Under the pieces are notes generated by a model. That model saw only the letters and a program-made list of their open reading frames with translations. It was not told the origin of the DNA and did not search any database. 64,000 bases of DNA from an uncultured Gemmatimonadales bacterium (GTDB lineage: Bacteria > Gemmatimonadota > Gemmatimonadetes > Gemmatimonadales > GWC2-71-9): positions 352,001 to 416,000 of the forward strand of contig CAWJMT010000004.1 of assembly GCA_963844035.1 (NCBI GenBank). Direction: 5' to 3'. Within the stretch, counting starts at the first letter, position 1, and every line of letters begins with the position of its first letter. The position numbers and the translations under genes were made by a program. This document shows positions 1 through 59,827 of the stretch, in pieces.

Positions 1-340
1 AGCGCACCGTGCACCCCCAGCGACACGATACCCATGCCGAAGACCGTGCGATCTGCCTTGCGCGCGGAGTCTCTCAACCTCAGAAACACGACACCCTCGT
101 GGCCACAGGTGGCAGACAGGACGGATCGAAGGGGTAAAAGGTTACAGTGTCGCTCGTAGCGCCGGCCCGTCCCTCCGGGGTATGTTCTGATGGGGACCAG
201 GGTGACTCCAGCCTCCTACCCAGGAGCCACCTTGGTGATGTCTCACTTCGAGGGGCCTGGGCTCTCAGTCCAGCCTTCACCTGCCCGCACCACATGCGCC
301 GGCTTCAGACACCGACCCGCCGGAAAGTCGTGCAGGTCTT

Positions 341-11376: not shown

Positions 11377-11456
11377 GGCCGACAAAGGCACACCCGGAGC
11401 GATCCGGGGCCGCAAAGCCAGGAGTCTCCCCCGGGGAGACCGTCCGGTTGCCGACG
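11377..11456 (+). promoter_or_regulatory. Cyclic di-GMP-I (GEMM-I) riboswitch
   Basis: AAGGCACACC-CGGA-GCGA-UCCG-GGGCCGCAAAGCC...GUCU...AGAC...GGUUGCCGA matches the GEMM-I pattern (GNRA-capped P2, GCAAAGCC junction, P3, GGUUGCCGA). Confidence 0.85.
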
Positions 11457-23107: not shown

Positions 23108-23290
23108 AGGCGAGCCGGTCTCCTGGCTCGAGGCAGCGCCATCGGCCTTCCCAGGGGGGCTATGCACATCCCCAGTGGCCAGACTTCGGTGGCGTCTTCC
23201 GCGGTGCTCCGCGGGCCTCTTACAGTGGCGGGGCCGCGCCGGTCTCACACCGGCTTCCGTATGGTCCGCCTGCGTCTGTTTTGGACTTCG
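23108..23290 (-). promoter_or_regulatory. Cobalamin riboswitch
   Basis: Minus strand reads GGAAGCCGGUG...CCGGCGCGGCCCCGCCACUGUAA...GCCACUGGG...GGGAAGGC...GAGCCAGGAGACCGGC (B12 box), upstream of the btu-like operon. Confidence 0.95.
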
Positions 23291-37245: not shown

Positions 37246-37251
37246 GGACGC

Positions 37252-37326
37252 ACGTGACGGGTCTCCGCGTGCGAGCCGTTCGCTACGCAGACCGAAAGCC
37301 GGGGGGGTAACCCTCCGGCTTTCGTT
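37252..37326 (+). ncRNA. Putative anti-tRNA antisense sRNA, orphan copy (predicted target anticodon GUC)
   Basis: ACGUGACGGGUCUCCGCGU + ...UUCGCUACGC hairpin + GAAAGCCGG...CCGGCUUUC terminator; homologous to 38537, 57464 and 58269. Confidence 0.6.
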
Positions 37327-37390
37327 ATTGTGGCGACGCCGTGCGCGTGACCCGACCGCCTGACCGCCGTATTATCCGACCACCGCTCTA

Positions 37391-38128: not shown

Positions 38129-38160
38129 GGGGTGCCCTTAGGGTGAGCGGTGCGAATCAA

Positions 38161-38255
38161 ACTAGGCGCATAGACGCATAGACGCATAGGCACGCATAGA
38201 CGCGTAGGGACCGCCCGACCACCGCTTCGTCCAGCCCGGGGGTGAACCCACCCGG
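38161..38255. repeat. GACGCATA-type short tandem repeat plus REP-like CCCGGGGGTGAACCCACC element
   Basis: ACTAGGCGCATAGACGCATAGACGCATAGG...; related copy at 38631-38716. Confidence 0.65.
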
Positions 38256-38403
38256 ATTTTGTTGCGTGGGAAGGATCCGCTTCGCGCGCATTTCATCACC
38301 TGGATGACGCCGGGTGCGCACACAATGATCCCGCGGCTCGGTAGCACTTGTTGGGTGTCACGTCATGGCGCTTAGGCCATACCAAGGTCCGCAACCGCTC
38401 GGT

Positions 38404-38487
38404 GCCGGCGTGGCGGAATTGGTAGACGCGGATGCCCCACAAGCATCTGGGCGAAAGCCCGTGCGGGTTCGAATCCCGCCGCCGGCA
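38404..38487 (+). tRNA. Type II tRNA with tRNA-Leu body and CAC (Val) anticodon; C at position 33; CCA not encoded
   Basis: Acceptor GCCGGCG/CGCCGGC, D arm GCGGAAUUGGUAGACGC, anticodon arm GAUGC-CCCACAA-GCAUC, V arm GGGC-GAAA-GCCC, T arm GCGGG-UUCGAAU-CCCGC, A73. Confidence 0.85.
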
Positions 38488-38501
38488 CGGCCGTGCATCC
38501 C

Positions 38502-38530
38502 TTGTTCGAAGGAATGGGCGGCAGTATTTT
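38502..38530 (+). promoter_or_regulatory. Putative sigma70-like promoter of antisense sRNA 1
   Basis: TTGTTC-17nt-TATTTT, then 6 nt to the first complementary base (38537). Confidence 0.6.
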
Positions 38531-38536
38531 TGAGGC

Positions 38537-38610
38537 GCTTGTGGGGCATCCGCGTAGCCGATTTCGCTACGCCAAGAAAGCCGGGGGTGTAACCTCCGGC
38601 TTTCGCTTTT
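38537..38610 (+). ncRNA. Putative antisense sRNA against tRNA 38404-38487
   Basis: 38537-38555 is the exact reverse complement of 38426-38444; 38561-38573 pairs with 38407-38419 (2 G-U); ends in a GC hairpin plus U tract. Confidence 0.7.
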
Positions 38611-38630
38611 CCGGTTCAGCGTCGTGCCCT

Positions 38631-38716
38631 TACCCCGGGGTGCCGCCCCGGGGTGAACCCACCATCCTACTAGGCGCACAGGCGCAAAGACGCATAGGCG
38701 CATAGGACCGCCGACG
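38631..38716. repeat. REP-like palindrome plus GCGCATAG-type tandem repeat
   Basis: CCCCGGGG...CCCCGGGGTGAACCCACC followed by ACTAGGCGCACAGGCGCAAAGACGCATAGG. Confidence 0.6.
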
Positions 38717-51519: not shown

Positions 51520-54432
51520 GTGGCCTTCGACCCACTCCCAGAGCAACGTGCCGCCATCGAGGCGCCACTCGGCCCCGTCCTCGTCATCGCGGGACCGGGC
51601 GCCGGCAAGACGTACTGCCTGGTCGCACGGATCAATCATCTGATCGCAGCGGGCACCGTTTCGCCCGAGCGCATTTGCGCCGTCACGTTCACCAACCGCG
51701 CCGCCGAGGAGATCGCGGCGCGCCTGAAGCACACCCTGGGGGACCGCGCCGAGGCGATCACCCGCGGCACGATCCACGCCCTGTGCCTCGGCCTGCTGCG
51801 CGAGCACGCCGAGCTGGCGGGGTTGCGTAAGGGGTTCGGGGTGGCCGACGACCCCTATCAAAAGGTGATCCTGAAGCGGCTGGGCGTGCCCCTGAGTCAT
51901 CGCGGGGGGCTGTTGAACCGGTTCAGTCGCCACCGCGCCCAGGACTACGAGCTGACGGCCGACGACATGCGGCTGTATCGCGAGTACGCCGCGTGGCTCG
52001 CGGGTCGCAACATGGTGGACTTCGACGACCTGGTCACCAAGGCGCGCGAGCTGCTGCGCACGCATTCGGGACTAGCCGAGCGCGTCGCCGCACGCTGGGA
52101 CTATCTCCTGGTGGACGAGTTCCAGGACGTCAATCCCGTGCAGTACGACCTGCTCAAGCGCCTGGCCACGCCGCACGACAACTTTTTCGCCGTCGGCGAC
52201 GACGAGCAGTCGATCTTCACGTGGACCGGGGCCGACCCGTACGTCCTCAAGCGCTTCAGCACCGAGTACGGGATCGAGCGGCCGATCGTACTCGACAAGA
52301 ACTGCCGCTGCTCGCGGCAGATCTTCGAGACTGCGCGGCGCGTGCTGGCGCAAAATCCCCAATTGTTCGACAAGCAGCTCACTGCCGAGCGGGAGTCGCG
52401 GTATGAAGTCACCGCGGTCGCCTTTCAGGACGAGCAGGACGAGGCGGCGTGGATCCTGGAAGACATCCAGAGCGACCGCGCGGCATCGGGATTGAGTTGG
52501 GGCGCCTATGCCCTGCTGTACCGCAAGCACAAGGTCGGTGACTACCTGGAAGGGCGTTTGTTAAAGGAGGGGATTCCCTGCCGCCTGGCGCGCGGCCGCT
52601 CGCTGGTCGAGGACGACGTCATCAAGTACGTCGTGGCGGCGTTACGCATCGTGCGCGACCCGGGGGACCCCGTCGCGCTCGAAGTGTTCGCGCGCTGCGT
52701 GCTCTCGGAGAACTTTCTCCAGGAAGTTCAGGGGGCGATCGGCGCCGCGGACGACTTCTTGGCGGCGGTGCGCGCGTTGGCGGGGCGCCGCCCCGCGACC
52801 GACCCCGATACGCGCAAGCTGTGGCGCTTGGTCTTCCAGGTCGAGAACTTCCACGCCTTGAGCCGCTCCCACGTCGCCCTGGCGCCGCTCGTGGACGAGA
52901 TCCTGTCGCAGAGTGTCGGGCCCTACAAGAACGTCCTGGAAGAGCGCCACGACGAGCTCAGCGATCCCGCCGATAGCCCCGAAGTCAGAGCCCTCGCCGA
53001 GCGACTTGCGCCGGCGCTCGCGGGAGAGCGCAGCGTCGCGATCTCACACCGCAGGGTGGGCTCGAGATCGCGTTGCGAGGCATGCTCGCGGCCGCCGGGT
53101 TCCGGCACGTTCGCTCGGACCTGAACGGCGATCTCGTCATTGGAGCGGGGGATGGAGGCGCGCGCGGGCTGGCGCTCACCCTGTTCAAGGCGCTCCAGCT
53201 GTTGCACGCCAAGGATCTGGACACCCCGCTCGAGCGCTACGTCACCTTTGACCTCGAGACCACGGACAACGACGTGGCCAGCTGCGGCGTGGTCGAGATC
53301 GGCGCTGCGCGCGTGGTGCGCGGTGAGATCGTGGCCCGGTTTCATACGCTGGTGCAGCCACACCGGCCGATCTCGCCCAAGGCGAGCGCGATCCACGGCT
53401 ACACCGATCGGGACCTGGCCGACGCACGCTCGTTCGCCGAGGTGTTCCCCGAATTCCGCGCGTTCGTGGGCGACGATCTCGTCATCGCGCACAACGGCCA
53501 GAAGTTCGACGTCCCGGTGCTGCGCCGTTTGGCCGCCGGTGCGGCCGGCGTGGACACCCTGGCCTTCTATGATACGCTCCCGCTAGCGCGGTCGCTTTCT
53601 AAGGACAGCGTCACGCAGGAGAACCTGGCGCATCGCTTCGGGATCGACGGCGGCAGGGCGCATCACGCGTTGGACGATGCCGTCACCCTGGCCGGGATCT
53701 ATCGCGAGCTCGAGCGCCAGCGCGGCGTGCGTGCACGTAAGGCCGTGCTCGTACACATCCTCGATTATCTTGGGCTCGCCCTCGCGCTCGAGGGTCCTGA
53801 CGACCCGAGCAGAAGCGAGCGGGGAGCGAGCGCTGCTGTTCGACATCGCGCGGGTCCGCACGCTGGGCCGCTATGGCGACGCGTTGCGGTTCTACGAAGT
53901 CGAGCGCGACCGCGCCGGCGCATCCTCCGGGCCAACACTAGACGAAGTGATCGAGCGGTTGGGTGGAGCCGCCATGATGACTCGCCTGCGCGCCGACCCG
54001 GCAGAGCGCTATCCGGCGGCGCTCGCTCGCCTGCGCGCCCTCATGGAGAGCAGCACCGAACGGACGTTAGCCGAGAGCATCGATCGCCTGCTCGAACGCA
54101 TCGCGCTCTCGACGTCTGATGGGGTCGAGGTCGCGCCCGACCGGGTCAATTTGCTCACACTGCATTCGACCAAGGGATTGGAGTTCTCGCGCGTCTACGT
54201 CGTTGGGGTGGAGGACTATCAGATCCCGGGATTCCACGAGACCAGGGAGCAGCGGGAGACTGATATCCAGGAGGCGCGCCGTCTCTTGTACGTCGGCATG
54301 ACTCGGGCGCGGGAGCGCCTGGTGTTGACCCGCGTCGAGCGGCGGTTCGGCATGGACTCAGGAGGCAGCGCGTTTCTCGAGGAGATGGGGCTCGAGGTTT
54401 CCACAGCCGACGCTTCATACAAGGAGAGTTGA
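51520..54432 (+). CDS. UvrD/PcrA-like SF1 helicase with inserted DEDDh (DnaQ-like) exonuclease domain, two frameshifts
   Basis: AGPGAGKT, DEFQD, VGDDEQSI; FDLETT, AHN..FD, HHALDDA; TLHSTKGLEF, LLYVGMTRAR. Confidence 0.9.
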
Positions 54433-55488
54433 TGAAGCGGCGGGATTTCATTCGGTCGGCGAGCATCGTCTCGGCGGGCTTGGCGCTCGGGAAGAAGGGG
54501 CAGCTCCTCGCCCGGCCCAAGAAGGCGAGCGGGTGGCGCACCTTCGAGGTCACGACGAACATCGAGGTTCTTAGCCCCAAGGGAACGACCCGCGTGTGGG
54601 TTCCGACCGGCCTCGTCGGCGACACCCCCTATCAGCGCACGCTCGCCAACCACTTCGATGCAGGGAATGGCTCGGCGCGCCTGGTTCAGCGTACTGCGGA
54701 TGCGCTAGGCCTGGTCGCCGCGGAGTTCCCCGAGGGCACGAAGCCCGCCCTGACCGTCACGAGCCGCATCGCGACCCGCGATCACGCGGTCGATCTCAAC
54801 GGCGCCGCGCGGCACCCAAGGCGAGAGTCGCGCGGACCTGGAGCACTTCCTGCGCCCCACCAAGCTCATACCCACCGACGGCATCGTGAGGATGACGGCG
54901 GGCGATATCACCAGGGGTGCGCGCACCGATCTCGACAAGGCGCGCGTGATCTACGAGTGGATCATCGACAACACCGCTCGCAATCCCAAGACGCGCGGCT
55001 GCGGACTGGGCGACATCCGGTTCATGCTCGAGACCGGGGACCTGACCGGCAAGTGCGCCGACCTGAATGCGTTGTTCGTGGGACTCGCGCGCGCGTCCGG
55101 CCTGCCGGCGCGCGATGTGTACGGCATCCGCGTCGCCAAGTCGGAGCTGGGCTACGCGAGCCTCGGACCCGCGACCGGGAAGATCACCAAGTCCCAGCAC
55201 TGCCGCGCCGAGGTGCACCTCGAGCAGTACGGCTGGGTCCCCGTCGATCCCGCCGATGTCCGCAAGGTGGTGCTCGAGGAGCCGCCCGGACACCGGCCGC
55301 TCGACGACGAGCTCGTGAAGCAGGCTCGCGCGCGGCTGTTCGGGTCGTGGGAGATGAACTGGATCGCCTACAACTTCGCGCACGACGTGGAACTGCCGGG
55401 CTCCTCGGGCAAGCCGGTCGGGTTCCTGATGTATCCGCAGGCCGAACGGCGGGCGGCGACGCTGATCCGTACGCATTAGATCACCTGA
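54432..55488 (+). CDS. Tat-exported transglutaminase-like domain protein, frameshifted
   Basis: MKRRDF twin-Arg signal; GKCADLN, QHCRAE, WVPVDP triad. Confidence 0.88.
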
Positions 55489-55515
55489 AGTCGATGCCTT
55501 CACCTGAGGACTCAT

Positions 55516-56043
55516 ATGCGTTCAATCAGACAGTTCGCCCTGGCGCTGCTCCCGTTGCCTATGCTACTCACCGTCGCCCCGCGCACGGTGAGCGACCTCC
55601 ACGAGGACGTCGTCGAGACGATCGCCGAGTTCAAGAAGAAGGATCCGGGGATGGAGAAGTTCTTTGCCGGCTCAGCCGGGTACGCGGTGTTCCCCACGGT
55701 GGGGAAGGGTGCGATCGGCATCGGCGGAGCGCACGGCACTGGCGAGCTGCTGGTGGGCGGCAAGGCGATCGGCAAGGTGACGCTCTCGCAGGTGACCGTC
55801 GGCTTCCAGCTCGGCGGACAGTCGTACTCGGAGGTCATCTTCTTCGAAAAGGAATCCCCGCTCCACGGCTTCAAGAAGGGCGACTTCGCCTTCGCGGCCG
55901 AGGCTTCGGCGGTTGCTCTGACCTCGGGCGTGTCGGCGAATGCCGCCTACCGCAACGGTGTCGCGGTGTTCACGATGGCGAAGGGCGGCCTGATGTACGA
56001 GGCGAGCATCGGCGGCCAGAAGTTTGACTACAAGCCGTACTAG
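55516..56043 (+). CDS. YSC84/SYLF lipid-binding domain protein
   Basis: AVFPTVGKG..GIGG..G.G, GFQLGGQ, GGLMYEASIGGQKF. Confidence 0.9.
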   Translation: MRSIRQFALALLPLPMLLTVAPRTVSDLHEDVVETIAEFKKKDPGMEKFFAGSAGYAVFPTVGKGAIGIGGAHGTGELLVGGKAIGKVTLSQVTVGFQLGGQSYSEVIFFEKESPLHGFKKGDFAFAAEASAVALTSGVSANAAYRNGVAVFTMAKGGLMYEASIGGQKFDYKPY

Positions 56044-56052
56044 CCAGTCGCC

Positions 56053-56302
56053 CTATTTCAGAACCTTCAGCCCCTTGAGTATCAGGATGAGCAGAACGGC
56101 CCCTGCCACCGCGATGAGCCAGCCCGCGATCGCACCCGACGTTCTCAGTCCGAGGAGCCCAGCCACCCAGAAGCCGAGAAACGACCCGATGATGCCGACG
56201 ACCACGTTGGCGACGATGCCCCATCTGGGCATTCGTCTTCATCACGATACTCGCCAACCACCCCACTACCCCGCCGATGATCAACGTTATGATGATACCC
56301 AT
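56053..56302 (-). CDS. GlsB/YeaQ/YmgE family small membrane protein (1-nt frameshift)
   Basis: MGIIITLIIGGVVGWLASIVMK..., NVVVGIIGS, AVAGAVLL. Confidence 0.85.
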
Positions 56303-56449
56303 GTTGTTCCTCCCTTTCGCGTACCTGCGGTCCGGGCGTGCGGGAACATCTGGGGTCAAACCTTCCCGCGAGCCGAGTGGGAGGTATTGGCCTTTAGGGA
56401 GGGAGGGCCTCATGATATCGAGCAATCACACTCATTCTCAAAGGGTCAT

Positions 56450-56977
56450 ATGAAGAGACTTGCCATCAGTGCCGTCGCGCTGCTCGTCGTGCTCTCGAGC
56501 GGAGCCCAGGGCCAGGACACGACCGGAGCTAAGGCTCACGGGACTCGACCGCAGCGAAGGCCCATCAGGACTCGAGCCGAGCCCCGACCGGGGCCGCGGC
56601 TACGGCCCCAGCGGGGAATCCGCTCAGCGCCACGTACTCGGTCCAGCTTGGCGATGTCGCCGCCGGCGTCTCTCTCCGAGATGCTCAAGCTGCGGACGGA
56701 CTTCGACCCCGCCATCATCAACTACGATCCGACAACTGGAACCGTAGACGTCGGGGTGTTCGGAGCACCGGCGGCCGGCAGCAAGACCGACCACGCGCGC
56801 ACGACCCTGGGCAAGTACTGGGATTTCATTCAAGCCGCGCATATCGCTTATGTCCAACGGCGTTACGGCGTGAAGCTGACGGTCAAGAACTACAAGCTCA
56901 TGTACTACGACCGCAGCGTTAAGGAGGGGCCGAAGCTGATTCTGCAGTTCGTGAATGGGCAATATTTGATACCGTAG
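56450..56977 (+). CDS. Secreted hypothetical protein
   Basis: Signal peptide MKRLAISAV...AQG; coding-like C-terminal part. Confidence 0.65.
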   Translation: MKRLAISAVALLVVLSSGAQGQDTTGAKAHGTRPQRRPIRTRAEPRPGPRLRPQRGIRSAPRTRSSLAMSPPASLSEMLKLRTDFDPAIINYDPTTGTVDVGVFGAPAAGSKTDHARTTLGKYWDFIQAAHIAYVQRRYGVKLTVKNYKLMYYDRSVKEGPKLILQFVNGQYLIP

Positions 56978-56981
56978 CGGT

Positions 56982-57132
56982 TTTTCCCCGGGCTGACAGC
57001 CCGGGCTCGGCGCAAGAGTGCGCCCTGTAAGGGCGCACCCCGGGCCGAGCGCGCCCTCTTAGGGCGCGGGTTCACGAAACCCAGGATCCCACCGAAGTCA
57101 TCCGTGAACCCCGGGCTTGTGCCCGGGGTCAG
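56982..57132. repeat. ~150 bp palindromic REP-like repeat, copy A
   Basis: Nested palindromes CCCGGGCT..AGCCCGGG, GTGCGCCCT..AGGGCGCAC, CCCCGGGC..GCCCGGGG; near-identical direct copy at 57959-58109. Confidence 0.85.
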
Positions 57133-57327
57133 TAGAGGCTCCTCCGTCTTTTACCAGCCGGGCGCGACATGTCGCGCCCCTACACCCGGCGTGGTTTCGT
57201 CCCCCCTCGCGTGTTTCGGGCACCTCAACCCTTCGGTATGGCTTGCATGGTCTCGACGTGGGCGGCAGCACGTATGGGATCACGCGTCTCGGCCTTCGGG
57301 ATTGCCTGGGTTCGCAGCCGGAAAGGT

Positions 57328-57411
57328 GCTGGTGTGGCGAAACAGGTAAACGCGGAGACCTCACACGTCTCTGGGCGAAAGCCCTTGTGGGTTCGAATCC
57401 CACCACCAGCA
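57328..57411 (+). tRNA. Type II tRNA with tRNA-Leu body and CAC (Val) anticodon; CCA not fully encoded
   Basis: Acceptor GCUGGUG/CACCAGC, D arm GCGAAACAGGUAAACGC, anticodon arm GAGAC-CUCACAC-GUCUC, V arm GGGC-GAAA-GCCC, T arm GUGGG-UUCGAAU-CCCAC, A73. Confidence 0.88.
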
Positions 57412-57428
57412 CCCTCCCCGCACCACTC

Positions 57429-57457
57429 TTGACTCGGCGATGAGCCGAGATGAAGTT
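57429..57457 (+). promoter_or_regulatory. Putative sigma70-like promoter of antisense sRNA 2
   Basis: TTGACT-17nt-GAAGTT, then 6 nt to the first complementary base (57464). Confidence 0.55.
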
Positions 57458-57463
57458 GTCACT

Positions 57464-57541
57464 ACGTGTGAGGTCTCCGCGTAGTGCGCCGTTCGCTACG
57501 CTGCTGAAGGCCGGAGGGGCAACCCTCCGGCTTTCGCATTT
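57464..57541 (+). ncRNA. Putative antisense sRNA against tRNA 57328-57411
   Basis: 57464-57482 is the exact reverse complement of 57350-57368; 57492-57501 pairs with 57332-57341 (2 G-U); GCCGGAGGG/CCCUCCGGC terminator. Confidence 0.7.
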
Positions 57542-57611
57542 CCGGGACGGAGGGAGTGCCTTCGTGATACCGCGGGGCATGGCCCCGCGGTAAACCCACC
57601 CGGACCAGGCT

Positions 57612-57947
57612 CGTCCGCGCGCACTTTGCGACCGTCAGCGAGCATCTTCCAATTGTCCGCGCGCACGTTGTGATCGTCAGCGGGCATCTTCCGACTGTCC
57701 GTGCACACTTTGCGACCGTCAGCGAGCATCTTGCAACTGTCCGCGCACGTCTTTCCGCTGTCAGCGCACACTTTGCGACTGTCCGCAGGCACTGGGGGAC
57801 TGTCCGCGCGTTCTTGGGCGTGATCCGGGGACACTTTGCAAACGACAGAGCGCACTGGGCGATTGTCCGAGCGCTTTGGGGGACGGTCCGGGGACATCGG
57901 GGGATCGTCAGCGCGTCTCTTGCAACAATCCGAGCATTCCTCGGGCC
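57612..57947. repeat. Degenerate 21-bp tandem repeat, 16 units
   Basis: Units such as CGTCCGCGCGCACTTTGCGAC and CGTCAGCGAGCATCTTCCAAT in strict 21-nt register; heptad peptides on both strands. Confidence 0.85.
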
Positions 57948-57958
57948 GAACCGCGTCC

Positions 57959-58109
57959 TTTTCCCGGGCTCATAGCCCGGGCTCGGCGCGAATGTGCGCC
58001 CTGTAAGGGCGCACCCCAGGCCGAGCGCGCCCTCTCAGGGCGCGGGTTCACGAAACCCAAGATCCCGCAGAAGTCATCCCGTGAACCCCGGGCTTGCGCC
58101 CGGGGTCAG
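57959..58109. repeat. ~150 bp palindromic REP-like repeat, copy B
   Basis: Direct repeat of 56982-57132. Confidence 0.85.
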
Positions 58110-58186
58110 CACAGACGGCGACGACGTGACAACCCGACCGCCCGACCGCCGCCTTTGTGGTTTGACCGCCTGACCGCCGCATCACA

Positions 58187-58216
58187 TTGTGGGTTCGAGT
58201 CCCACCACCAGCACCC
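58187..58216 (+). pseudogene. 3' fragment (T arm plus acceptor strand) of the CAC tRNA
   Basis: TTGTGGGTTCGAGTCCCACCACCAGCACCC, one mismatch to 57385-57414. Confidence 0.8.
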
Positions 58217-58268
58217 CCACTCTTAGGTGTCCATTGACTCGGCCGCGGCAATTCACGATGTTTTCACT

Positions 58269-58338
58269 GTGTGAGATCTCTGCGTAGCCAGTTTCGCTAC
58301 GCCAAGAAAGCCGGGGAGCGTAACGCTCTCCGGCTTTT
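58269..58338 (+). ncRNA. Putative antisense sRNA copy 3 (promoter TTGACT-17-GATGTT at 58234-58262)
   Basis: GUGUGAGAUCUCUGCGUAGC...GCUACGCCAAGAAAGCCGG...CCGGCUUUU. Confidence 0.65.
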
Positions 58339-58347
58339 GAGGCGTGT

Positions 58348-59827
58348 CTATGCCCGCCAACTCCGCGCAGCTCTCTCCACCAGCTTGCACCATCGCCCAG
58401 GTGTCGCGCTCGCAGTAGTCGAGCAGGTCCTGCCGCACGCGATCGCGCTCGTGCTGCGGGATCTTGTCCGCGACAAACAGGAGCCGCGCGATCTCGACGC
58501 TCGCGACGCCGGCCGTCCACGATCACGAGATCGTTGTAGGTCAGCTCGGGGACGAGGGGCGTGAGGATGTCCTTCAAGCTGAAGCTGCCCCTGAAATCGG
58601 GGTGGTAGACGCAGTTCTTCACGACCGGGATGCAGGTCGATCAGCTTCGCCTCGAGCGCCGTGAGCTCGGCGGCGAGGTCGGGCACCGCCCGTTGCAGCT
58701 CCCGGATGCGGGTCCTCTCGAATGGCGTGTACGTCGCCACCCGCTCGGCGTTGGCGGTCGCTCGCACCATCGCTTCAGCGAGCGGCGGGCGCGCGTCCTT
58801 CGGTCCTTCGGCGAGGAACGCCGCGTGAGTGTAGGTGCCGTCGGGCTGACGTTCGTGGTAGCTGAACTGAGCGGCGGCCTGCTGCCAGGGGGCCATGCCG
58901 GGCCAGACGGGGATCGCACGAGCGATGGTTTCGAAGTCGAGGAAGCCCAGGCGCCCCGCAAATGGCTCCAGCTCACTTCGCGAGCGTCGGCTCGACGATG
59001 ACGCGGTTCTCGGCCATCGCCTTGAGCTGGCGTTTCTGCGTGAAGTTGAGCTTCTCCTTCGCCGGCAACTGGCCGATCGAGGTGATGCCGCGCTCGAGAT
59101 AGGCCGACGGTCTTTTTCGGTCCCGACGCCGGCGAGGTTCCCGATATGGTCCGGCCCGTCGGGCCAGCAGCGCTTCAAGAACGGGCAGTCCCGCGGCTCG
59201 AAGCAGTGCGCGCCGATCGATACGTCGGGGAGCGGCCCGACGAGCATCGCCCGCTGCGCCGCGATCTCGTCCGGAACCGTGGGGAGCAGCGCGACTACCG
59301 CCCCGGTCACGTCGGTGCGGGCGAAGAGGTCGCCCGTGTCGGGATGCCGGAACTCCTTGTTGAGGTGCATCACCTCCGCGCTCGTGACGTTCACGCCGCA
59401 GGCCGCGGCGACGCGGGCCTGGATGGCGACGTCCGGGATGTGCTCGTCCTTCTGTGAGGTGGATGATTTCACCTCGGTCAGCCGGTAGCCGTCGTCCTGC
59501 TTCTCGAGCACGTCGATGGCGACGAACATGCCGTCGGCGATGAACGTCGCTTCGAAGACCGCGGGGGCGCCCGCATCAAGCGCCTTCTTCGTCGCCGCGA
59601 CGCGCTCGGCGCCCGCGTTGTGCGGCAGGTCGATCAGCACGCCACCCGGATATCGCGCGCGGGCCGCTTCGCCCACCTGGCGGCCCTGGTCGAAGAGGTC
59701 CTGTAGCACCTTGTCGGGCTGGAGCTCGAGCGGCGTCGGGCTCGTGCACTTCCCACCACAATTTCTTGTGGCATTGGAGGCCGGAGGTGAAGCGGGATTT
59801 GGAGAGGCGGGGGAGGGGCTGGGTCAT
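58348..59827 (-). CDS. DUF2779 domain protein (PD-(D/E)xK nuclease-like N-part plus RNase H-like C-part), frameshifted
   Basis: LSKSRF..GLQC.K.LW, DVL...EVKSST, C..PRDCPF..RCW, LDFET, QFSYH, GSFSLK, YCERDT. Confidence 0.85.

Follow-up and report, generated by a model that had tools for sequence, protein, structure and literature searches.

A leucine-type tRNA with a non-leucine anticodon and a co-varying antisense RNA gene in Gemmatimonadota, pointing to control of a potentially miscoding tRNA

Why should a bacterial tRNA gene be followed, a few tens of nucleotides downstream, by a sequence complementary to its own anticodon arm? The question is raised by a stretch of 64,000 nucleotides (here called the window) from an uncultured Gemmatimonadales bacterium (assembly GCA_963844035.1, contig CAWJMT010000004.1, positions 352,001 to 416,000). 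The assembly comprises 39 contigs and 3.47 Mb at 67% G+C, with 84% completeness. A preliminary description of one locus of the window, here called module 2, had proposed that a tRNA(CAC) is accompanied by an antisense small RNA (sRNA) which co-varies with it. As judged by sequence comparison, the module belongs to a family of such pairs, pointing to a previously undescribed control of a potentially miscoding tRNA.

ARAGORN finds two tRNAs in the window (38404-38488 and 57327-57414) and calls each of them Val(CAC). Rfam RF00005 (gathering score 29) matches them at 38404-38487 with 56 bits and at 57328-57411 with 59 bits, and the latter, the tRNA of module 2, has the cloverleaf, the D and T loops and the score of a class II tRNA. 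Its anticodon arm, GAGAC-CTCACAC-GTCTC, lies at 57355-57371. Downstream, the 19 nt at 57464-57482 are the exact reverse complement of 57350-57368, a target which runs from the 3′ strand of the D stem through position 26, the 5′ side of the anticodon stem and its loop as far as the second base of that stem's 3′ side. The complement is preceded by TTGACT (57429-57434), a 17-nt spacer, GAAGTT (57452-57457) and 6 nt. Sequence reading, ARAGORN and Rfam thus bear out the cloverleaf, the complement and the TTGACT-17-GAAGTT-6 arrangement first noted for this locus. The parts of module 2 are as follows; R1 and R2 are covariance models built for the leader plus tRNA and for the antisense sRNA, respectively.

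57186..57252, + strand: conserved stretch in front of the leader, where the tRNA transcript may have a regulated promoter
57208-57223, + strand: CGCGTGTTTCGGGCAC, within this upstream region
57243-57248, + strand: −10-like TTGCAT, within this upstream region
57253..57327, + strand: conserved 5′ leader of the tRNA precursor (four paralogs and 52 modules; R1)
57328..57411, + strand: class II tRNA, 7/5 cloverleaf, long variable arm, discriminator A73 (ARAGORN, Rfam)
57350..57368, + strand: target stretch in the tRNA, exact reverse complement of 57464-57482
57362-57364, + strand: anticodon CAC, on a leucine-type body
57429..57457, + strand: promoter-like element of the sRNA, TTGACT-17-GAAGTT (sequence reading; family motif)
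57464..57545, + strand: putative antisense sRNA of about 80 nt (R2 match 57461-57555; both ends predicted)
57464-57478, + strand: free 5′ tail of the sRNA (predicted fold)
57479-57501, + strand: hairpin 1 of the sRNA (predicted fold; compensated in the family)
57502-57538, + strand: terminator hairpin of the sRNA, then a U-rich tail (predicted fold; compensated in the family)

The body of the module tRNA is, by its sequence, leucine-type class II. This had gone unremarked in the preliminary description, and it changes the probable role of the module. With the anticodon arm set aside, the module 2 tRNA shares 70-78% identity with the five tRNA-Leu of the genome, 62-69% with its tRNA-Ser and tRNA-Tyr and 58-60% with its tRNA-Val and tRNA-Ala; for the four module tRNAs of this genome, the corresponding ranges are 70-84%, 62-71% and 58-64%. 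We extended the comparison to a main set of 52 non-redundant modules assembled from genomes (rows L037, from an unpublished genome, and L108, a false call, were dropped) and to at least 69 distinct module-type tRNAs obtained from metagenomes by a pattern scan. Covariation was counted on a structure-blind MAFFT alignment of the 52 modules, with 500 shuffles and slid controls. The cloverleaf is paired in 98.6% of cells (slid controls, 33-54%) and 15 of its 24 pairs are compensated, including all five pairs of the anticodon stem; no shuffle reached its covariation score. U8, G18, G19, U54, C56, A58 and A73 are the same in every module, A14 in at least 90% of them, and C2-G71 is found in 50 of 52. 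According to the accessible text of PMC9976931, leucine identity in Escherichia coli depends on A73 together with D/T-loop tertiary contacts, not on the anticodon or the variable arm, and C2-G71 is a determinant against SerRS. The bacterial tRNA-Leu identity set (A73, U8:A14, G18G19, the D/T-loop contacts and C2-G71) is present in the module tRNAs.

The leucine anticodon (NAG or YAA) is what these tRNAs lack. Module 2 carries CAC, and none of the 52 modules, a set chosen for non-leucine anticodons, carries a leucine one; among leader-bearing R1 matches, the anticodon was non-leucine in 29 of 29 cases (28 of 28 without an unpublished genome). The 52 modules display CGC (17), CAC (15), GGC (6), GAC (4), GGU (3), AGC (3), GUC (2), UGC (1) and GCC (1), to which the metagenome modules add CUC and UUC. 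Across the family the specificities are Ala, Val, Asp, Glu, Gly or Thr, and all anticodons except GGU read GNN codons, several of which are common in this genome (GCG ranks 1, GCC 2, GGC 3, GUG 6, GAC 9 and GUC 12). Position 37 is A in 52 of 52 modules, and anticodons of this kind need no elaborate modification at that position. A single LeuRS gene was found in the 84%-complete genome, where a second one was looked for and not found.

The complement follows the tRNA through the family. The 19 tRNA:sRNA pairs are standard in 90.6% of 908 cells (slid controls, 29-45%), 14 of them have changed on both sides, and none of the 500 shuffles reached the covariation score. tRNA positions 33-40 are matched in 47-52 of the 52 modules. 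The 19 nt initially described for module 2 are indeed perfect, although the antisense does not stop there: with G-U pairs and a few mismatches, it continues over tRNA positions of about 4-41, some 38 nt. Local alignment of each sRNA with the reverse complement of its own tRNA extended over positions of about 3-45 and gave 1591 Watson-Crick, 133 G-U, 30 A-C and 126 other combinations. Since transitions in a DNA inverted repeat would produce G-U and A-C combinations equally, the 4.4-fold excess of G-U (133 to 30) indicates selection on the RNA of the tRNA strand.

Predicted duplex energies, computed between the anticodon arm and the first 26 nt of the sRNA, agree with cognate specificity. Over the 52 modules the mean is −29.1 kcal/mol (sd 4.7) for cognate duplexes and −13.3 kcal/mol (sd 5.0) for crossed ones, so that crossed pairs are not equal to cognate ones. 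For 45 of 52 tRNAs, the own sRNA is the best of the 52; the other seven are mostly near-ties or misplaced sRNA windows. In the metagenome set, own-flank duplexes beat the 5th percentile of crossed pairs for 63 of the 69 tRNAs listed. The preliminary description had also suggested that paralogous modules might be insulated from each other. In the predicted energies such insulation is only partial. For module 1, the other module of the window, the cognate duplex is at −37.0 kcal/mol against −11 to −15 kcal/mol for crossed pairs. Module 2 and module 3 share the loop CUCACAC: their cognate duplexes are at −32.1 and −31.7 kcal/mol and their crossed duplexes at −25.6 and −23.7 kcal/mol, so that cross-pairing at about −24 to −26 kcal/mol may be expected.

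Is the downstream complement a gene? In 47 of 52 modules the complement is preceded, at a distance of 5-11 nt (mode 6), by a promoter motif, TTGNNN-16..18-YANNNT, compared with 0.9 expected in shuffled spacers and 0 on the opposite strand. The module consensus is a TTGACN-17-TAnnnT promoter followed by an RNA of about 80 nt, in which a free 5′ tail precedes a hairpin and a terminator. In the predicted fold, the unpaired tail measures about 14-15 nt and the terminator is G+C-rich, with an A-tract pairing with the U-tract. In 43 of 51 sRNA stretches, paired cells amount to 94.3% for hairpin 1 and 95.3% for the terminator; of the 16 pairs in these hairpins, 11 are compensated in the 43 sRNAs, and again 0 of 500 shuffles reached the score. 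Hairpin 1 mirrors the D arm in antisense, but is no longer a perfect copy: its divergence lengthens its own stem. Lone sRNA genes, described below, keep both promoter and terminator.

The order of the genes can also be permuted. The metagenome locus L230 carries two modules in which an sRNA gene with promoter and terminator lies about 240 nt upstream of the cognate tRNA. There the predicted duplexes with the upstream sRNAs reach −31.4 and −29.9 kcal/mol, versus −14.4 and −19.2 kcal/mol with the downstream stretches. At this locus, therefore, pairing must work in trans. The two L230 modules (sRNA gene, then leader and tRNA) lie inside a tandem duplication which also repeats the 3′ end of a protein gene.

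Taken together, the promoter motif, the compensated hairpin and terminator and the order at L230 suggest that the sRNA is a gene of its own. Selection on cognate pairing, as the preliminary description had proposed, is well founded on the covariation of 52 modules, the preference of 45 of 52 tRNAs for their own sRNA, the G-U bias and the conserved promoter and terminator. The G-U bias, the motif in 47 of 52 modules and the conserved terminator hairpin also argue against a recent inverted duplication without promoter or terminator conservation, the possibility raised there against it. Three mutually exclusive sets of helices, namely the tRNA anticodon stem, the sRNA hairpin and the intermolecular duplex, are under selection, which fits an L-shaped tRNA captured by a structured antisense RNA through the anticodon loop.

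The genome holds four full modules, two in the window and two with long tRNAs on contig C27 (one CAC, one UGC); an ordinary 74-nt tRNA-Val(CAC) is encoded elsewhere, on C23. The four long tRNAs share one arrangement: the tRNA follows a conserved leader of about 72 nt, and after a spacer of about 50 nt come a complement of the own arm, a hairpin of the type GCGTAG...CTACGC and a terminator. With R2, seven sRNA genes are found in this genome: each full module has one, and three are lone, the third of these being at C27:108922. The related copies within the window are the following.

37249..37343, + strand: lone antisense sRNA gene with a TTGACT-17-AACATT promoter, hairpin and terminator (R2, 51.7 bits)
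38332..38625, + strand: paralogous module 1, with leader, tRNA 38404-38487 (loop CCCACAA), promoter and sRNA (ARAGORN, Rfam, R2)
58187..58358, + strand: decayed second copy of module 2 (R2, 62.5 bits; sequence reading)

Module 1 has the layout of module 2, with a different arm (GATGC-CCCACAA-GCATC), its own complement from 38538 and an sRNA matched by R2 at 38534-38624. It lies 18.9 kb upstream, so that the same order and spacing with a matching complement, reported earlier for a first copy about 19 kb away, is confirmed. Short degenerate repeats of the CATAGACG/CATAGGCG type are found on both sides of module 1 (38160-38215 and 38660-38712), and a GGGGTGAACCCACC motif is shared by both flanks.

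The tail of the lone sRNA at 37249-37343 complements an arm GAGAC-CCGTCAC, that is, anticodon GUC (Asp). There is no tRNA beside it, and a matching tRNA was not found in the 84%-complete assembly. The decayed copy of module 2 retains a 3′ remnant of the tRNA (58187-58213, T arm plus 3′ strand of the acceptor). Its TTGACT promoter is still there and its sRNA (58264-58358) is intact; the anti-CUCACAC tail of this sRNA is predicted to pair with the arm of the module 2 tRNA at −20.3 kcal/mol. Module 2 and this copy are each preceded by the same repeat of about 140 nt and are thus a tandem duplication of one unit, the period being about 975 nt. This repeat (56995-57135 and 57970-58110) is G+C-rich and contains nested palindromes. 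A same-genus genome has parts of it at several sites, with 84-91% identity, and the repeat may be an element of the repetitive extragenic palindrome (REP) or miniature inverted-repeat transposable element (MITE) kind. Between module 2 and the decayed copy sits a tandem array (57613-57810) with a 21/42-nt period, of about 9 and 4 copies respectively, matching at 64-83%.

One more lone sRNA is carried by genome G088. tRNAs are not found without a partner in the same way. None of the 52 genome modules has an unpartnered tRNA, and R1 matches without an R2 match have complements which are diverged yet matching. Of the 69 metagenome tRNAs listed, besides the 63 that pass the duplex test, five fall just short and one (L211, an odd locus) has no match. 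One clearly degenerate tRNA (G088:C3) has a non-matching sRNA. R2 counts are undercounts because the model overlooks diverged sRNAs such as those of G147 and G083:C2, although both have complements. The presence of lone antisense genes but of no unpartnered intact tRNA in the genome set hints at the asymmetry expected if the bare tRNA were harmful. As regards the assembly itself, some contigs are redundant: C5 shares a Trp-Glu-Glu-Lys tRNA array with C21 and tRNA-Leu(GAG) with C24.

How widespread is the module? In a same-family sample, 32 of 151 genomes have a best R1 match at E ≤1e-20, several of them with many copies (the sample includes three unpublished genomes, on which no result rests). 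In a phylum-wide sample the figure is 21 of 151, distributed over families as 13/71 (f1), 3/31 (f2), 2/2 (f3), 1/1 (f9) and 1/13 (f10). A separate pattern scan of genomes, keyed on the tRNA-Leu body with one genome per species, gave at least 119 matching loci, of which 80 were analysed. Among these 80, 52 were tRNAs with leucine anticodons from many phyla, with a longest downstream complement of 4-7 nt at scattered offsets; the 28 with non-leucine anticodons had complements of 6-18 nt at offsets 43-63, reaching at least 9 nt in 26 of 28. Twenty-six of the 28 come from records titled Gemmatimonadota, -ales, -aceae or -etes and the other two from metagenome-assembled genomes labelled Zixiibacteriota and Gaiellaceae. 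The tRNA/sRNA complement of module 2 is far beyond chance. A viral contig collection gave no match to either module pattern, and in 40 relatives the exact sRNA pattern gave only chance matches, in coding DNA of G015 and G038.

The modules are multi-copy, patchy in distribution and often on short contigs. In an empty-site comparison with five same-genus genomes, synteny was too broken to define insertion borders. A tree of the 52 modules requires at least 26 anticodon changes among the 52 rows, a rough figure since the tree is poorly resolved, with strong support for 4 of 49 inner branches. The close pair formed by module 3 (CAC) and module 4 (UGC) illustrates such a change: the loops differ and the sRNA tails follow.

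The region in front of the tRNA is conserved as well. The consensus of 51 upstream regions is GCAA..N..GCGTG..TTcGGTtAc, then about 22 nt, then TAtnnT ending a few nucleotides before the leader (in condensed form, GCAA..GCGTG..TTCGGTTAC, about 22 nt, TAtnnT). Two similar half-sites, GCAAnnnTT.. and GCGTGnnTTCGG, lie within it at a distance of about 21 nt and are followed by GGTTAC and the −10-like box; the motif may serve for activator binding or be recognised by an alternative sigma factor. It is unlike the sRNA promoter, which suggests that the tRNA is controlled separately. The leader of about 72 nt is conserved across the four paralogs and 52 modules, with full-length R1 matches in many genomes. 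RNAalifold gave it only weak, uncompensated pairs and no supported fold, and it is not a detectable tRNA; searched in Rfam 15 at E up to 10, neither the leader nor the sRNA matches any family. The 1-2-nt indels of the leader among homologs do not fit a coding region. Its last three bases, GGU, are able to pair with A73-C74-C75.

An all-versus-all comparison of open reading frames (ORFs) from 32 loci, looking for a conserved protein partner, gave only frames overlapping the module itself. Ser/Thr kinases lie near 6 of the 32 loci without fixed orientation and a DUF2779 protein near 2. The neighbours are an ion channel and DUF4442 for module 1, ORFs of unassigned function and DUF2779 for module 2, and BrkB/YihY for module 3; the next gene downstream of module 2 is on the other strand. 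Around module 2 (51520-56977 and 58348-59709) we observed a helicase, an RNase T-type exonuclease ORF, two ORFs without Pfam match and DUF2779 on the opposite strand, a group which may be a defence-like gene cluster. The helicase is UvrD-like and seemingly split over two frames (51520-53124 and 53677-54432). Elsewhere in the window are a c-di-GMP-I-GGC riboswitch (11378-11456, + strand, 59.6 bits, slightly over its gathering score of 59) and a cobalamin riboswitch (23118-23258, − strand, 59.7 bits).

What could such a pair of genes do? The reading we favour, and hold to be about evenly balanced between right and wrong, is an RNA-only two-gene module in which the antisense masks or destroys a leucine-type tRNA that would otherwise insert leucine at GNN codons. 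Given the leucine-type body, anticodons without need of elaborate modification at position 37 and no unguarded tRNAs beside persisting lone antisense genes, a masked miscoding tRNA is the most economical explanation. LeuRS ignores the anticodon in the bacteria studied. Gene 1 would produce a precursor with the conserved leader and a class II tRNA with leucine identity features and anticodon CAC; if the only housekeeping LeuRS charges this tRNA after processing, leucine would be placed at GUG. Gene 2, from its own sigma-70-like promoter about 50 nt downstream, would produce an RNA of about 80 nt with a single-stranded 5′ tail. This tail would dock on the exposed anticodon loop; strand invasion would then open the anticodon stem, and pairing would spread via the D arm to the acceptor stem, over about 38 bp. 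The tRNA would thereby be masked from the ribosome, unfolded and probably passed to a double-strand RNase. Since transcription of the tRNA meets no terminator before gene 2, the trailer of every tRNA transcript would include one antisense copy; together with the supply from the internal promoter, the tRNA would therefore be off by default, released only upon a drop in antisense supply or induced tRNA transcription. Transcription, transcript ends, leucylation, decoding, toxicity, duplex fate and trigger are all inferred in this scheme.

The module would thus act like an RNA-RNA toxin-antitoxin pair or a gated mistranslation switch, the former by analogy. Taken further, it could be a protein-free toxin-antitoxin or abortive-infection system with the tRNA as toxin, a narrower proposal which we put forward only tentatively. 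Leucine at the commonest GNN codons would corrupt the proteome, a short-lived cognate antisense would hold the tRNA in check, and transcription shut-off or firing of its own regulated promoter would unleash it. Switching of anticodon and stem, with the antisense following, would give rise to mutually insulated paralogs.

Several points weigh against a masked miscoding tRNA. U33 is nearly universal in decoding tRNAs; C33 replaces it in 13 of 52 genome modules and 18 of the 69 metagenome modules listed, and its presence in about a quarter of modules could reflect relaxed selection for decoding. The conserved leader has no explanation in the model and, together with C33, may warn of a non-decoding role. 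Charging by LeuRS is drawn from E. coli rules, that is, from another phylum, and ValRS might also accept a CAC anticodon with A73. Val-to-Leu changes are mild, which makes toxicity uncertain. If the antisense were always in stoichiometric excess, it would be hard to see how the tRNA could act. Insulation between paralogs is, in the duplex predictions, partial. The 32 loci offer no consistent defence or mobile-element context. Finally, the signals of module 2 itself are weak: a strict consensus scan of 57150-57650 returned no sigma-70 promoter and no terminator, the −10 box GAAGTT is without the usual A at position 2 (module 2 is one of the five of 52 modules missing the family −10 pattern), and only a short T-run stands behind the sRNA hairpin. 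For these signals the case therefore rests on the family.

Some of these points lead to other explanations. The absence of a terminator between tRNA and sRNA, in module 2 and under the strict scan, would suit a cis-acting pro-tRNA, in which the antisense is a read-through 3′ trailer blocking or timing maturation by RNase P, RNase Z or RNase III and the internal promoter is secondary. In its favour, the 290-nt read-through RNA has its predicted energy minimum (−146.6 kcal/mol, z = −5.5) when the downstream stretch pairs with the 5′ half of the tRNA, and RNAalifold gives this pairing as the consensus of the four paralogs. Pairing of a leader with the tRNA 3′ end can hinder RNase P, as that of the leader GGU with A73-C74-C75 could do here. 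A promoter motif placed directly before the complement in 47 of 52 modules, a compensated sRNA hairpin departing from a pure antisense copy and lone sRNA genes retaining promoter and terminator weigh against such a trailer, and co-transcriptional folding would presumably form the cloverleaf first. With the sRNA gene upstream of its tRNA at L230, pairing in trans must be enough; the cis fold-back suggested earlier stands as a predicted fold. We consider this explanation unlikely as the principal one; it is not exclusive of the masked miscoding tRNA. A tRNA-like RNA that is not a decoder seems unlikelier still, whether as an uncharged A-site trigger of RelA and the stringent response, a substrate of a tRNA-dependent enzyme, or a sponge or partner of an effector sRNA. 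C33 in about a quarter of modules, a conserved leader which may remain attached and the lack of a dedicated synthetase (one LeuRS only, in an 84%-complete genome) speak for it, and allo-tRNAs of Acidobacteria have also been proposed to be regulatory RNAs, not translational ones (accessible text of PMC5389517). Set against these are the strictly kept leucine identity and L-shape elements and an invariant A37 with anticodons reading only GNN codons, GGU apart, a pattern resembling a constraint from decoding. Because the sRNA tail differs from one tRNA to the next, it has no constant mRNA target.

Could the complement be a feature of the DNA, without RNA function? If the arms were an inverted repeat maintained through gene conversion or template-switch (quasipalindrome) correction, or marked the two ends of a small mobile element, this would account for the origin of the sRNA as an inverted partial copy of the tRNA 5′ half, for the multi-copy, patchy modules, often on short contigs, and for the repeats flanking both window copies. 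We find this very improbable in view of the excess of G-U over A-C, which is relevant only to the RNA of the tRNA strand, the conserved promoter and terminator, an sRNA hairpin diverged from perfect antisense in a compensated manner and a leader conserved although outside the repeat. Moreover, the permuted order at L230 alters the geometry while the match is kept, and the viral contig collection is without a match to either pattern. The codon-like triplet pairing with the anticodon, followed by a terminator hairpin, recalls a T-box, in which the supposed sRNA would be the 5′ leader of a downstream gene and a dedicated tRNA would decide termination. We give this hardly any credit: neither T-box nor any other Rfam family matches at E up to 10, the downstream genes differ between copies and the one next to module 2 is on the opposite strand, an alternative antiterminator is not seen in the predicted fold, and pairing over about 38 nt is more than a specifier codon and an NCCA end.

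The masked miscoding tRNA has partial counterparts among known systems. Neighbouring antisense RNA genes with their own promoter occur in type I toxin-antitoxin systems (hok/sok type) and in type VIII RNA-RNA systems (SdsR/RyeA, CreTA), and the CreTA RNA toxin acts through a tRNA. In such systems the target is toxic once the antitoxin, the less stable partner, is missing; for the module, lone sRNAs without lone intact tRNAs are an indirect hint of this. The module resembles them in an adjacent antisense gene with its own predicted promoter and terminator, in cognate specificity among paralogs and in the persistence of lone antitoxin-like genes when the target is never alone. It differs in its target: type I targets are mRNAs of small toxic proteins and type VIII targets regulatory sRNAs, whereas here the target lies inside a tRNA and no protein is involved. 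Both module genes are also on the same strand, the antisense being an inverted partial copy and not an opposite-strand transcript. In a T-box, an RNA reads the tRNA anticodon by base pairing; the module has no T-box motif, acceptor-end contact or regulated downstream gene. 3'ETS-leuZ, a small RNA from the trailer of a tRNA-Leu precursor, is a sponge for other sRNAs, in contrast to the module sRNA, which pairs with its own tRNA.

The tRNAs too have relatives of mismatched identity. The nev-tRNAs of nematodes have class II Leu-type bodies with non-leucine anticodons (PMC3333845), like the module tRNAs, and tRNA-ProX of Streptomyces works with ProRSx (PMC11415595). As far as the accessible texts go, nev-tRNAs, tRNA-ProX and allo-tRNAs share with the module tRNAs a foreign anticodon on a body whose synthetase ignores the anticodon or is thought to; an unusual position 33 in some members (a review of mistranslation notes G33 or A33 in natural mistranslating tRNAs) and a patchy distribution in soil bacteria are further likenesses. 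Those texts describe neither a dedicated co-evolving antisense gene nor a conserved leader for them, unlike what is found in the modules. Furthermore, tRNA-ProX has its partner ProRSx and the modules have no partner synthetase (one LeuRS; no conserved protein neighbour in 32 loci), and allo-tRNAs have 8/4 or 9/3 acceptor/T stems where module tRNAs are canonical 7/5, with both stems compensated. The phylum, Gemmatimonadota, and the anticodons, GNN readers plus GGU, set the module tRNAs apart as well. In the full-text literature searched, with subscription journals outside its scope, we found no description of a tRNA gene with a cognate antisense sRNA, nor of Leu-type tRNAs with these anticodons in Gemmatimonadota.

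Even without decoding, what is described here, with its pairing, its conserved leader and selection at the level of RNA, is a new structured-RNA family absent from Rfam 15. If the masked miscoding tRNA is correct, this would be the first tRNA gene with its own co-evolving antisense gene, and the phylum would harbour throughout a large natural family of Leu-type tRNAs directed to codons for Ala, Val, Asp, Glu, Gly and Thr. The cognate pairs found in nature, dozens in number and varied in stems and anticodons, would then supply ready orthogonal RNA switches for tRNA activity. It would also become testable whether a tRNA can serve as a toxin, how an RNA can invade a folded tRNA via the anticodon loop, and whether bacteria use deliberate, switchable mistranslation.

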